A DNA stretch of 64,000 bases from Candidatus Omnitrophota bacterium (GCA_020429915.1 JAGQKV010000002.1:128061-192060); one strand, 5' to 3'. Shown: positions 15,083 to 19,309, numbered from the stretch's first letter. Notes: generated by a model from the letters alone, not told the origin. Translations and numbers: made by a program.

Positions 15083-17875
15083 CTATGATTGCTTTAACAA
15101 GGGTTTAAGATATTTCGCGGTATGCGACGTCGGGTGTTCGGCCAGCTGTTCGGGCGGGCCGGCAAAAACGATCTCCCCCCCTTTGTCGCCGCCGTCCGGT
15201 CCCAAATCGATGATGTAGTCGGCCGTCTTGATAATATCCAGATTGTGCTCGATTACCAATATCGTGTTGCCCTTGTCCACCAGCCGTTGCAGCACCTTCA
15301 ACAGTTTGTCGACGTCCGCAAAGTGCAAGCCCGTGGTCGGTTCATCCAGAATGTAAAGGGTATTGCCGGTGGACTGTTTGCGCAGCTCGCTGGCCAACTT
15401 GACGCGTTGGGCCTCCCCTCCGGACAGGGTCGTTGCCTGCTGACCCAGCCGGATGTACCCGAGTCCGACGTCGTTGAGGGTGGTAAGCACGCTGCGAATC
15501 GGGGGAATGTTTTCGAACAGTTGAATCGCCTCGGTGACCGCCAGATTCAGGATGTCGCAGATCGAATATCCCTTGAACTGAATCTCCAACGTCTGCTCAT
15601 TGAAACGCTTTCCCTTGCACACCTCACATTCGACGTAGACATCCGGCAAGAAGTGCATCTCGATCTTGCGGATCCCGTCTCCCTGGCAGGCTTCGCAGCG
15701 GCCGCCTTTGACGTTGAAACTGAATCGGCCGGGTTTATATCCGCGCATCTTCGCTTCCGGCAGCTGTGAAAACAGGTTGCGAATATGACTGAAAACCCCT
15801 GTGTAGGTGGCCGGATTGGAACGCGGGGTGCGTCCGATCGGGGATTGATCGACTTCGATAATTTTGTCGACTTGTTGCAGGCCCGTGATGCGCTTGTGGC
15901 GTCCGGGTTTATCCTTGGCGTGGTGCAGTTCTTTGGCCAGCGCCTTGAAAAGGATTTCATTGACCAAGGTCGATTTTCCGGAACCCGAGACACCGGTGAC
16001 ACAGGTCAGCGTGCCCAGCGGGACGGTGACGTCGATGTTCTTGAGGTTGTTTTCCTCCGCCCCCTTAACGGTCAGGACACGTTTGGGATCCAGCGGCCGG
16101 CGCTCGGCGGGGACCGGGATAAAGCGCTTGCCGTTGAGGTATTGACCGGTCAGGGATTTCTTCGATTTGAGAATCCCCGCCGTCTTGCCCGCATAAATGA
16201 TCTCCCCGCCGTATTCACCGGCTCCGGGTCCAAGGTCAACGATGTAGTCGGATTTGCGGATGGTTTCCTCGTCATGTTCGACGACGATGAGCGTGTTGCC
16301 GATGTCGCGCAGGGAATGTAGTGTGGTGAGCAGGCGCTGATTATCCTTTTGATGCAGTCCGATACTCGGTTCGTCCAGGATGTAGATCACACCCGTTAAG
16401 CCCGAACCGACCTGAGTGGCCAGGCGGATGCGCTCGGCCTCCCCGCCCGACAGGGTGGCGCTCATTCGGTCGAGGGTCAGGTAATCCAGCCCCACGTTGA
16501 AACAGAAATCCAGTCGGCGGTTGATCTCTTTGATAATTTGTTCGCTGATTTCCCCCTCGGCTTTGTTCAACTTGACTTCGGCGAAGAATTTCTTGGCATC
16601 CTTGATGGAGAAATGATTGACCTCCGCGATATTCAAACCGTTGATCCTGAAGGCCAGCGCCTCCGGGCGCATGCGGGTGCCGTTGCAGGCGGGACATGGC
16701 AGTACCGACATGAACCGGGAGATCTCGTCCTTGAGCCAATCGCTGTCGGTATTCTGGAACATCCGTTCCAGGTAAGGAATGACCCCTTCAAAGGGTTTGC
16801 CCCAAATGGAGTCGCCTGTTCCATAGAAAATCTTCTTCATAAAAGATTTGGGAGTTTTTTTGAACGGCTGATACGGATCCACGTTGTGTATGTGCGCCAG
16901 TTCACGCATGACCGCGCGGTAGTACATCAGATAATGGCTGCGGCCGCGGGTCCGCGGTGCGATGGCGTTAATCCAGGGTTTGTCGCTGTCAGGAACCAGC
17001 AGTTCCGGGTCGATTTCCATTTTTGTGCCGAGGCCGTTACAGCTTTCGCAGGCCCCGTAGGGAGAATTAAAGGAAAACAGCCGCGGCGTCACCTCATCGA
17101 TATTGAAACCGGATTCACTGGAGAACTTCTCACTGTAAGTCTTCTCGGTTTCCTCTTCGGGTTGCAGGACAGTAACCGATCCCTGGCCGACCTCCAGCGC
17201 CGTCTCAATGGAATCGGTCAGGCGTTTTTTGACGCTATCCTTCAGGGCTATCCGGTCGACGACCACCTCGATGGTGTGCATTTTGTACTTGTCCAGCTTT
17301 AACTCTTCCTGGACATCCTGGATGTTGCCGTCGACCCGGATGCGCGCGAAACCGGCCTGGGCCACCTGCTTGGGGATGTTTTTATATTCCCCTTTTTTAC
17401 CTTTGATCAGCGGCGCGAGGATGATGATCCGGGTGCCCTCGGGCAGGGCCATGATCTGACTGACGATCTCCTGCGCCGATTGTTTTTCGATGGGTTTTCC
17501 CGTTTTGGGATCGTGAGGAACACCGATGGAGGCGTACAGCAGCCGCAGGTAGTCGCTGATTTCGGTTTGCGTGGCGACGGTGGAACGGGGATTACGGCTG
17601 GTGGTCTTTTGTTCGATGGAAATCGTCGGGGATAGGCCTTCTATTGACTCGACATCCGGTTTTTGCAGCTGCTCCAGGAATTGGCGGGCATACGCCGACA
17701 AGCTCTCGACATAGCGCCGTTGTCCCTCGGCGTATATGGTGTCGAAGGCCAGCGATGATTTGCCGGATCCGCTCAATCCGGTGATCACCACGAACTGATC
17801 GCGGGGGATTTTGAGATCGAGGCTTTTAAGGTTATGTTCCCGGGCTTGGCGAATTGTGATGTACTTGCTTTTCAT
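15083..17875 (-). CDS. uvrA: Excinuclease ABC subunit A
   Basis: 930 aa. Two ABC ATPase modules (GLSGSGKSSL and GVSGSGKSTL), zinc fingers and LSGGEAQR signature motifs. Confidence 0.95.
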   Translation of the reverse strand: MKSKYITIRQAREHNLKSLDLKIPRDQFVVITGLSGSGKSSLAFDTIYAEGQRRYVESLSAYARQFLEQLQKPDVESIEGLSPTISIEQKTTSRNPRSTVATQTEISDYLRLLYASIGVPHDPKTGKPIEKQSAQEIVSQIMALPEGTRIIILAPLIKGKKGEYKNIPKQVAQAGFARIRVDGNIQDVQEELKLDKYKMHTIEVVVDRIALKDSVKKRLTDSIETALEVGQGSVTVLQPEEETEKTYSEKFSSESGFNIDEVTPRLFSFNSPYGACESCNGLGTKMEIDPELLVPDSDKPWINAIAPRTRGRSHYLMYYRAVMRELAHIHNVDPYQPFKKTPKSFMKKIFYGTGDSIWGKPFEGVIPYLERMFQNTDSDWLKDEISRFMSVLPCPACNGTRMRPEALAFRINGLNIAEVNHFSIKDAKKFFAEVKLNKAEGEISEQIIKEINRRLDFCFNVGLDYLTLDRMSATLSGGEAERIRLATQVGSGLTGVIYILDEPSIGLHQKDNQRLLTTLHSLRDIGNTLIVVEHDEETIRKSDYIVDLGPGAGEYGGEIIYAGKTAGILKSKKSLTGQYLNGKRFIPVPAERRPLDPKRVLTVKGAEENNLKNIDVTVPLGTLTCVTGVSGSGKSTLVNEILFKALAKELHHAKDKPGRHKRITGLQQVDKIIEVDQSPIGRTPRSNPATYTGVFSHIRNLFSQLPEAKMRGYKPGRFSFNVKGGRCEACQGDGIRKIEMHFLPDVYVECEVCKGKRFNEQTLEIQFKGYSICDILNLAVTEAIQLFENIPPIRSVLTTLNDVGLGYIRLGQQATTLSGGEAQRVKLASELRKQSTGNTLYILDEPTTGLHFADVDKLLKVLQRLVDKGNTILVIEHNLDIIKTADYIIDLGPDGGDKGGEIVFAGPPEQLAEHPTSHTAKYLKPLLKQS

Positions 17876-17944
17876 AGTGGCGCGGGCGGCGCTTAGTGCG
17901 CGGCAGAGGCTCCATATTAGATCAAGGCGGGAACTGCGTCAATA

Positions 17945-17986
17945 CCAAAAAAAACAGCCCTTGTAATAGTTATATTACAAGGGCTG
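17945..17986 (-). terminator. Rho-independent terminator of the histone-like gene
   Basis: Perfect 14-bp stem CAGCCCTTGTAATA/TATTACAAGGGCTG with a 4-nt loop (17955-17986), followed on the minus strand by TTTTTTTT. Confidence 0.6.
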
Positions 17987-18009
17987 TTATGGTCGAGCGC
18001 GAATCGCGC

Positions 18010-18456
18010 CTATTTTCGCTTTGCGGCTTTCTTTTTGGTCGCCTTTTTCTTGACGGCCTTTTTCTTGGTCGCTTTTTTCTTCACGGCCTTTTTCTTGGTC
18101 GCCGGCCTGCGAACGGCCTTTTTCTTGGTCGCCTTACGCTTGACAGCCTTTTTCTTTGTTGCTTTCTTCTTGACGGCTTTCTTCTTGGTTGCTTTCTTGG
18201 TTGCCTTGCGTTTGGTGGCCTTACGCTTCTTTCCCCCGCGAACCATTTTTGCGCTGGAGATGTCACCATTCTTATCTATGAAGTATAGATAGCCTGGTTT
18301 CTTCTTCACTCCGACCTTAGCAACCTTTTTCGGCTTACCACCTTTTTTGCTGCCGCGGGCCATCTTCGCGCAAGAAATGTCGCCATTCTTATCGACAAAG
18401 TAAAGGTATCCGGATTCTTTCTTGATACCGATCTTTGCCACTTTTTGCGTAGCCAT
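18010..18456 (-). CDS. Lysine-rich histone H1-like / nucleoid-associated basic protein with tandem repeats
   Basis: 148 aa. Two N-terminal about 37-aa repeats (IGIKKESGYLYFVDKNGDISCAKMARG and VGVKKKPGYLYFIDKNGDISSAKMVRG) and a C-terminal (KKAVKKKATKKKAV)n tail. Encoded by tandem approx 30-bp DNA repeats. Confidence 0.6.
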   Translation of the reverse strand: MATQKVAKIGIKKESGYLYFVDKNGDISCAKMARGSKKGGKPKKVAKVGVKKKPGYLYFIDKNGDISSAKMVRGGKKRKATKRKATKKATKKKAVKKKATKKKAVKRKATKKKAVRRPATKKKAVKKKATKKKAVKKKATKKKAAKRK

Positions 18457-18481
18457 GCATTCACCCCCTTTCGTCAGATAT

Positions 18482-19309
18482 TTAAGTCCCGATCAAAATC
18501 CCGGTACAATACTGTTTGAGGGTCTGTAATCCGGACAACACGGCCATGTAACTGGTTTTCGGGTTGTCGGGGCAGACCACGTTTTCGGTCTTTGTATGTA
18601 TCCTTCCAAAATCGCCGTCGAGTTCGATTTCATGCGTGTTGCGTGTGTACTCGGGAGATACGACGATTCTAATATGGAGTTTGTCGGGATCCTGGCAAGC
18701 CAGGGCTATGGTAGCGGCGACATTGATGTTTCGGGGAAAATGTTTTACGGCCTCGTACACCTTGCCCTCAAAGATAACGGTCTCCTTGGTGATATCCTCC
18801 AGACGGATTCCCTTTTCGTCGAGATAGTCGTTGCCTTGAAATCCGGAGAGCGGTTTGCGGGTAGTGAGGGTGATTCGGTTGGTTTTGACGAGGCTGGCGG
18901 CCTTGATGGCATCCACGCCGGCGATCGCGCCTGACGGGAGCAAAATGTAGCATTTGTTCTTTTTGGCCAGATTAAACAGTTTGGCGGCGCCGAGTAATTT
19001 TCCGACGCTCATGGCGAGTACGCTTTTTTTAGCGCGAATGATTCTTTCGATGATGTCAAGAGTGTGATCTGAGTTGACGGCTTCCACTATACAGTCGCTT
19101 GCTGAAATGATGGAATCGATTGATCGTTTTTTAACGTTTTTCAAGTCCAGATCTTTCGCCAGCTTGTTGACTCTCTCGCCGTCGATGTCGTACAGCCCGC
19201 TTATCCGGCAATCCTTCTCAAAATCACGGACAATGGCGGTGGCCATTCTGGATCCGATAGCGCCGCAGCCGACTATGCCGACTTTAACTTTGTAGTTCGG
19301 AGATTTCAT
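18482..19309 (-). CDS. nadX: L-aspartate dehydrogenase
   Basis: 275 aa. N-terminal Rossmann GIVGCGAIG. C-terminal matches to the Thermotoga NadX family (FEG..A...FPRNINVAATI, PDNPKTS). Confidence 0.75.
   Translation of the reverse strand: MKSPNYKVKVGIVGCGAIGSRMATAIVRDFEKDCRISGLYDIDGERVNKLAKDLDLKNVKKRSIDSIISASDCIVEAVNSDHTLDIIERIIRAKKSVLAMSVGKLLGAAKLFNLAKKNKCYILLPSGAIAGVDAIKAASLVKTNRITLTTRKPLSGFQGNDYLDEKGIRLEDITKETVIFEGKVYEAVKHFPRNINVAATIALACQDPDKLHIRIVVSPEYTRNTHEIELDGDFGRIHTKTENVVCPDNPKTSYMAVLSGLQTLKQYCTGILIGT

Follow-up and report, generated by a model that had tools for sequence, protein, structure and literature searches.

A two-repeat basic protein family with an optional lysine-rich tail in uncultured Omnitrophota, Elusimicrobiota and Woesearchaeota

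The window analyzed here, a 64-kb stretch of DNA from a Candidatus Omnitrophota bacterium, carries on its minus strand a gene encoding a 148-aa protein (16.3 kDa, pI 11.1, net charge +58) in which two N-terminal repeats, here called the core, are followed by a long lysine-rich tail. The gene and its surrounding features, numbered from the first nucleotide of the window, are as follows.

15083..17875, minus strand: uvrA (930 aa), the downstream gene, a conserved neighbor in related loci
17945..17988, minus strand: intrinsic terminator (stem-loop 17953-17988, T run 17945-17952)
17997..18009, minus strand: small G+C-rich hairpin, GCGCGAUUCGCGC as minus-strand RNA, immediately past the stop codon and upstream of the main terminator
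18010..18456, minus strand: coding sequence of the 148-aa protein, with ATG start, stop codon at 18010-18012 and more than 4000 homologous clusters
18013..18231, minus strand: K/A/T-rich tail (aa 76-148), about six 10-aa units of KKKATKKKAV
18024..18198: tandem array in the tail DNA (30-nt period, 5.8 copies, 77% matches; TRF)
18227..18332, minus strand: core repeat 2 (approximately aa 42-77), the same module as repeat 1; strands E43-46, E56-60 and E66-70 in the AF2 model
18344..18449, minus strand: core repeat 1 (approximately aa 3-38), found as a DNA repeat family; strands E3-7, E17-21 and E27-31 in the AF2 model
18457-18481: intergenic gap of 25 nt between the stop of the aspartate dehydrogenase-like gene and the ATG, most of it taken up by the Shine-Dalgarno sequence
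18461-18470, minus strand: strong Shine-Dalgarno sequence AAGGGGGTGA, 4 nt before the ATG, found by sequence inspection
18482..19309, minus strand: upstream aspartate dehydrogenase-like (aspDH-like) gene (Pfam Asp_DH_C, NAD_binding_3)

As originally predicted, a 148-aa protein is encoded here, by an ORF that starts with ATG behind a strong Shine-Dalgarno sequence. The minus-strand gene order is dap operon, aminotransferase, folK, panC, aspDH-like gene, 148-aa gene and uvrA. Nearly all long ORFs between positions 1 and 39600 lie on this strand, over approximately 39 kb, and the block of dapF, dapA, dapB, the aminotransferase gene, folK, panC, the aspDH-like gene, the small gene, uvrA and genes for TPR proteins recurs in other Omnitrophota genomes. 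The original prediction described the gene as a monocistron, an arrangement taken as a sign of high expression. However, only 25 nt separate the stop of the aspDH-like gene from the ATG, too few for an intergenic promoter, and the sole promoter-like match upstream (18698..18671) is a weak 9-of-12 match inside the aspDH-like gene. The monocistronic arrangement was therefore not upheld, the argument for high expression fails with it, and the aspDH-like gene is the probable cotranscription partner. The terminator does have the perfect stem that was claimed, but of 16 rather than 14 bp, with a 4-nt loop and eight T/U residues following; the 73-nt region around it folds with a dG of -34.8 kcal/mol (z = -7.5 versus shuffled sequences). 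It stands between the 148-aa gene and uvrA, so that the 148-aa gene is the last of its transcription unit, and uvrA has a promoter-like site of its own beyond it (17942..17914). Rfam matches on the minus strand at 17942-18115 and 17949-18009 (NsiR1, CsrC and mir-H11) were sub-threshold (for NsiR1, 23.6 bits versus a gathering score of 39) and were dismissed as chance similarity to the terminator hairpin.

The two N-terminal repeats of approximately 37 aa were confirmed at both levels. The DNA copies lie 117 nt apart and are 72% identical, and the encoded peptides, 39 residues apart, share 79% identity over 24 residues (E = 1e-13) and the motif GYLYF(V/I)DKNGDIS(C/S)AKM(A/V)RG. Repeat 1 is laid out as a first strand (KVA), a K-x-G-I-K-K-E-x-G loop, a second strand (YLYFV), a DKNGD turn, a third strand (ISCAK) and a closing M-A-R-G. 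By itself the core has a mass of 8.1 kDa, a pI of 10.1 and a net charge of +14. AF2 modeling of residues 1-79 with a 50-sequence alignment returned a confident all-beta structure (pLDDT 89.6, pTM 0.72) of six strands forming two equivalent triplets. In an alignment of 20 members, G16, L18, Y19, F20, D22 and G25 are invariant together with their counterparts in repeat 2, as are the basic positions K8, K12 and R34, while K5, K13, K47, K51, K52 and R73 are at least 90% conserved. The conserved basic positions persist in divergent copies that are fused to other domains. Judged by sequence, the stand-alone proteins carry neither a signal peptide nor a membrane segment.

The repeat had been described as not assignable to a known domain, and this held. 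Comparison of the protein and divergent members with Pfam, NCBIfam and PHROGs gave noise only, and no significant match was obtained for the core among PDB sequences, either with the single sequence or with a 50-sequence profile. The top PDB profile match was to the YWTD repeats of LRP6 (E = 0.04), in which no single stretch was significant. Foldseek searches with the full-length and core AF2 models found no match at E ≤ 0.001 in the PDB or BFVD. Two readings of the motif were rejected: the glycine is wrongly placed for an EF-hand-like interpretation of DKNGD, and a zinc ribbon is incompatible with a single Cys per module, for which most archaeal and Elusimicrobiota copies have Arg.

The profile search of the N-terminal repeat that had been proposed as a check recovered an unannotated family of approximately 80-aa proteins and no known domain. 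Residues 1-79 matched 4003 clusters (90% identity) in a collection of 5.8 billion proteins, with E values down to 1e-43; the best clusters were 77-88% identical, almost all were 79-96 residues long and unnamed or called "hypothetical," and many were labeled Omnitrophota. A profile search of 1.84 billion representatives at 50% identity returned 1093 clusters at E ≤ 1e-3, of which 383 reached E ≤ 1e-10. With each GTDB species represented by a single genome, a scan confirmed relatives in 573 of 600 stretches among the matches listed (thus at least 573). When the profile search was seeded with the repeats of divergent multidomain copies, again only unannotated proteins of approximately 80 aa were found. 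The exact 148-aa sequence has no entry in the cluster collection by exact look-up. No description of the family or motif was found in the literature on Omnitrophota (a survey of this lineage included), nucleoid-associated proteins and DPANN chromatin or by motif strings. A typical member has approximately 80 aa and a short K/R tail, and the family signature, which the 148-aa protein fits, consists of two modules approximately 39 aa apart and then a K/R run, each module following the consensus K-x-G-[IV]-K-[KR]-x-x-G-[YFW]-L-Y-[FY]-[IVL]-D-K-x-G-[DN]-[IV]-[SA]-x-x-x-M-x-R-G. Against the 20 aligned members, the core of the 148-aa protein is mostly 74-81% identical, with three divergent members at 57-61%. 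The core thus defines an undescribed, strongly basic family of approximately 75-85 aa that has no Pfam or NCBIfam entry. What is new is this uncharacterized core domain; small basic proteins that bear low-complexity lysine tails are of a known kind.

By its sequence matches, the family is present in uncultured Omnitrophota, Elusimicrobiota and Woesearchaeota (DPANN archaea) by the thousands. Among species-level loci, the best 80 are labeled Omnitrophota (the largest single label), Elusimicrobiota/Endomicrobia or Woesearchaeota/Nanoarchaeota, with a few other labels. Core identity averages 75-76% within these groups and 67-72% between them, including between bacteria and archaea, and so flat a pattern points either to extreme constraint or to repeated interdomain transfer. 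The archaeal assignment is supported by the neighboring genes, which encode OapB, OapC, an oapA-like GTPase, HerA and a Mre11-like phosphoesterase. One Woesearchaeota-labeled copy with OapC and OapB neighbors (L013, 3992-4408) is most similar to Omnitrophota copies, being 88% identical to L064 in the core, and it has the Omnitrophota-typical "SC" residues and a 66-aa KKKAV tail; this suggests interdomain transfer or a chimeric assembly. Several MAGs labeled "uncultured Planctomycetales/Planctomycetia" and one labeled "Deltaproteobacteria" share the Omnitrophota-specific panC-aspDH-X-uvrA synteny, and these labels are probably wrong.

The tail of the 148-aa protein comprises 73 aa with 52% K, 21% A, 11% T, 8% R and 7% V and a net charge of +44. 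It contains a single proline (1% P), no S/TPKK motifs and no acidic or aromatic residues. In composition it does resemble H1 C-terminal domains (CTDs) and bacterial K/A-rich tails, as had been noted from the sequence. The underlying DNA repeats of approximately 30 bp are less alike than the "near-identical" of the original prediction, as the six 30-nt units share 60-87% identity with one another and exact direct repeats do not exceed 21 nt. AF2 draws the tail of the full-length model as a long helix; in K/A-rich, low-complexity sequence, such a helix does not count as evidence of folding.

Across the family, tails of this kind are the exception. In 79 loci from the best 80 species-level loci, themselves drawn from at least 573 confirmed relatives, the segment after repeat 2 has a median length of 8 residues (range, 2-76) and holds at least 4 K/R residues in 60 cases. 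Tails of 30 residues or more, with 51-79% K+R, occur in 11 of the 79 and are scattered over Omnitrophota, Elusimicrobiota, archaeal and "Clostridia"-labeled genomes; that of the 148-aa protein is the longest. The repeated units differ as well (KKKAV, KKAAKKT, KKAVKKVA, KKTARKKPARR and RRTTARR), and different units in scattered lineages argue that long tails arose repeatedly and independently. Judged by these comparisons, the lysine tail is an optional, lineage-specific add-on and the two-repeat core of approximately 75 aa is the conserved entity. The designation of the protein as H1-like is accordingly abandoned, as most of the 79 loci lack a long tail and the core has neither a winged helix nor an HU fold. 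The object of interest is the undescribed core family and not the H1-like tail.

The repeats had also been expected to make the gene prone to expansion and contraction. This was not seen at the strain level: the index of the assembly collection lists the identical 148-aa protein in 81 blocks, and all 24 contigs read with an identical aspDH-like neighbor also encode the 148-aa form, although rare variants may exist. An exact 35-mer search for strain variants in JGI metagenomes gave no match. Over evolutionary time, judged from the spread among related loci, tail length has clearly been plastic.

A low-complexity tail invites the suspicion that the ORF is an annotation artefact, either no gene at all or a gene whose tail stems from a misassembled repeat, and ORFs on the opposite strand mirror it. 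Two such plus-strand ORFs rich in F, L and G, at 17896-18288 (130 aa) and 18035-18292 (85 aa), are mirror artefacts of the lysine-codon repeats. For the gene itself, the chance of an artefact is negligible. The core is found in more than 4000 protein clusters and in at least 573 species genomes among the matches listed, and the identical 148-aa product is encoded on at least 24 independently assembled contigs and in 81 index blocks. Furthermore, the ORF is framed by a strong Shine-Dalgarno sequence and a terminator. As the core is kept at 60-88% identity in hundreds of genomes, at loci ranging from 24% to 52% GC, the gene is certainly real, and conservation already refutes the artefact.

The order panC, aspDH-like gene, X and uvrA is shared by the window and 36-42 related loci of an Omnitrophota subgroup, and uvrA lies immediately downstream of the small gene in 36-38 Omnitrophota-type loci. 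Of the 75 loci with an identified upstream ORF, 29 have a gap of less than 50 nt to it, in most cases with both genes on one strand, and in many Omnitrophota loci the small gene follows a biosynthetic gene by 16-60 nt (25 nt here). In Woesearchaeota-type loci the neighbors are herA and genes for a Mre11-like phosphoesterase, an origin-associated oapA-like GTPase, oapB and oapC. Such neighbors (oapA-like GTPase, oapB, oapC, herA and Mre11-like) recur in L035, L036, L022, L061, L041, L053 and L077, where the small gene lies at approximately position 4000. In these loci the small gene may be situated near a replication origin and a DNA-repair cluster. Relatives also occur on six viral contigs of IMG/VR, including single-module forms of 45 aa, which are consistent with a dimeric working unit. 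Two of the single-module versions, MSELVVARAVVREKGYLYFIDKDGNICRSKMNRAGRPKKIDKQAN, are found at L092 1849-1989 and L093 2995-3135 on contigs predicted to be viral, and on L093 the copy lies among small genes, one ORF upstream of a gene for a ParB-like DNA methyltransferase. No family match was obtained by tblastn in the cultured-phage and plasmid collections.

These neighborhoods bear on the idea that the protein is RNA or ribosome associated, that is, an accessory ribosomal protein, hibernation factor or RNA chaperone whose core binds structured RNA and whose tail resembles a ribosomal-protein extension. Like many ribosomal proteins it is small, very basic and beta-rich, and 67-72% identity between bacteria and archaea would be in keeping with a partner conserved to the degree that rRNA is. 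One member is fused to a HIT/DcpS-like nucleotide hydrolase, and one oapA-like GTPase neighbor matches the 50S-ribosome-binding GTPase family MMR_HSR1. However, a recurrent ribosomal-protein or translation cluster was present in none of the 79 loci analyzed; the recurrent neighbors are instead biosynthetic genes, uvrA, herA/Mre11-like genes and oapABC. The enzymatic fusions with nucleic acid substrates are directed at DNA (ParB and HNH), no Pfam or NCBIfam ribosomal family was matched above noise, and ribosomal chains were returned by Foldseek only at E > 0.5. We consider an RNA- or ribosome-associated role improbable.

Module fusions are heterogeneous. In a 595-aa protein (P0192), ParB_N and HTH_ParB domains are followed by two C-terminal modules in place of the usual ParB C-terminal region. 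Two members are fused to an HNH endonuclease domain, and further matches to HNH_5, HNH_4 and NinG were found. One of the two, P0239 (370 aa), has two N-terminal modules and then a C-terminal HNH nuclease domain. Other fusion partners are TIR, HIT, OmpA, SLT, GAF/RING, DoxX and several membrane proteins, and in one fused member there is an additional match to the propeller domain Hemopexin. Individual architectures include ten or more modules in a large membrane protein (P0121, 886 aa), six modules with acidic linkers between them (P0122, 354 aa) and a pair of modules ahead of a membrane segment and OmpA (P0180, 257 aa).

Heterogeneous partners of this kind mean that the module could be a general adaptor. 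The core might then bind proteins or ligands rather than nucleic acids, perhaps by oligomerizing into a propeller-like ring in the way of two-blade lectins, or might bind anionic membranes or polymers, with the tail playing a secondary and separate role. The module is indeed promiscuous, occurring with TIR, OmpA, SLT, GAF/RING, DoxX and membrane-anchored proteins, P0122 has acidic linkers, and G-x-LY[FYW]-x-D resembles the strands of propeller blades, in line with the LRP6 YWTD match (E = 0.04) and the Hemopexin match in a fused member. The YWTD similarity is nevertheless below significance, and the AF2 monomer is compact and confident by itself (pTM 0.72). The stand-alone proteins lack a signal peptide and a membrane segment, and a conserved positive surface together with a near-universal poly-K/R C-terminus (60 of 79 loci) is a better fit to a polyanionic partner. 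An adaptor function is thus a serious but rather unlikely alternative.

We favor, with a probability of roughly one-half, the interpretation that the core is a sequence-nonspecific nucleic acid-binding module, most likely for DNA, and that the tail, where present, would raise affinity or condensation. This reading is favored by charge, the ParB and HNH fusions, DNA-acting neighbors and the repeated acquisition of H1-like tails, taken together. In being small and basic, both the core and the whole protein resemble nucleoid-associated proteins. The DNA-acting neighbors occur in three unrelated settings, namely, uvrA in Omnitrophota, herA/Mre11-like/oapABC in Woesearchaeota and the ParB-like DNA methyltransferase on a viral contig, and the 67-72% identity between bacteria and archaea fits a universal polyanionic partner. 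In mechanistic terms, internal duplication of a three-stranded beta module of approximately 37 aa would have produced a pseudo-dimer, and conserved lysines and arginines of the core would contact the DNA backbone. The candidate contact sites are the K-x-G-[IV]-K-[KR] loop before the second strand, the [SA]-R/C-x-K-M-x-R-G segment after the third and the short poly-K/R C-terminus. A long tail would add approximately 44 positive charges, in the manner of the H1 linker histone CTD or of the K/A tails on HU from mycobacteria and Streptomyces, and could thereby increase affinity, neutralize charge and bridge or condense DNA. Nucleic acid binding itself is inferred, as are the choice of DNA as the partner, condensation by the tail and the level of expression.

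Several observations count against DNA binding. In the searches made, the core showed no homology or fold match to known DNA-binding domains; the gene stands at operon-like spacing behind a biosynthetic gene, while genes for classical nucleoid-associated proteins usually form single-gene operons (PMC11390915); and the acidic linkers of P0122 are odd for a DNA binder. Omnitrophota encode IHF-like proteins (PMC11390915), so that the 148-aa protein fills no obvious gap. Moreover, repair genes may be syntenic by chance, and the heterogeneity of the fusion partners also weighs against this reading.

A bolder form of the DNA-binding interpretation is put forward only tentatively, and we hold it to be possible rather than probable. 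The core may represent a new DNA-binding fold that founds an unrecognized chromatin or nucleoid family, shared by Omnitrophota, Elusimicrobiota and Woesearchaeota/Nanoarchaeota (DPANN archaea), probably exchanged horizontally among them and carried by a few viruses as well, with tails added independently to tune compaction. Elusimicrobiota have very small cells. The Omnitrophota lineage has likewise been described with very small cells (PMC10066038), and DPANN archaea have been described as very small-celled too.

If the core binds DNA, its family would be a new one among architectural DNA proteins, perhaps with a new fold, in major uncultured lineages with essentially undescribed chromatin. 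A small chromatin-type protein kept at approximately 70% identity across the bacteria-archaea divide would then be an unusual case. The natural series of tails, from 2 to 76 residues on a near-constant core, offers a ready system for testing the effect of H1-like tails on DNA binding and condensation. Even with another function, a family of more than 4000 clusters at 90% identity and approximately 1100 at 50% deserves description.

Among known systems, the tail is most readily compared with the CTD of linker histones, which acts by charge neutralization and DNA condensation. The tail of the 148-aa protein and the H1/H5 CTD are alike in composition, length (approximately 70 aa) and the possession of short internal repeats. 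However, T and V take the place of P in the tail and S/TPKK motifs are absent, and the likeness is compositional, without homology. Furthermore, H1/H5 has a winged-helix globular domain, whereas the 148-aa protein has an N-terminal all-beta two-repeat domain. Linker_histone (PF00538) and Hc1 (PF07432) gave no Pfam hit even at E ≤ 10, HU (PF00216) gave none in Pfam or NCBIfam, and tblastn with E. coli HupA found nothing in the 64-kb window. Given the lack of a winged helix, an HU fold or Hc1 homology, membership in the H1, HU and Hc1 families is rejected.

K/A-rich tails are known from other bacterial proteins, including mycobacterial Hlp/MDP1, Streptomyces HupS, Chlamydia Hc1/Hc2, Pseudomonas AlgP and Bordetella BpH1, and in Actinobacteria both HU and topoisomerase I (TopA) gained lysine tails. 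For Streptomyces, two reports name DdbA (PMC3643593) and the lysine repeats of TopA (PMC5714199) as further cases. The proline-containing KPAA repeats of AlgP/AlgR3 are absent from the 148-aa protein, whose tail unit is KKKATKKKAV, with one proline in the whole tail, and membership in this group is rejected as well. What the 148-aa protein shares with the tailed bacterial proteins (HU/Hlp, Hc1, DdbA, TopA and others) is the arrangement of a K/A repeat of lineage-variable length on a small folded domain. In contrast to those proteins, the folded domain of the core family is a different one, and most members lack the tail.

For the core, two-blade lectins and YWTD blades offer a structural parallel in their tandem beta modules of approximately 40 aa with a G-x-LY[FYW]-x-D strand motif. 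These have four strands per module, however, compared with three in the core, which is highly basic and cytoplasmic, and Ldl_recept_b gave no Pfam hit for the core, the YWTD match at E = 0.04 not being significant. Comparison with reference sequences of Sso7d and Cren7 by hhalign gave a probability of 0.1%, and neither family was hit in Pfam or appeared among the Foldseek PDB matches. Sul7d (Sso7d/Sac7d) and Cren7 form an SH3-like barrel, while in the core a three-stranded module is duplicated internally. Nevertheless, Sul7d/Cren7 would provide the closest functional analogy for the core, as both are all-beta proteins of 7-9 kDa with high lysine content, each encoded by one small gene across a lineage.
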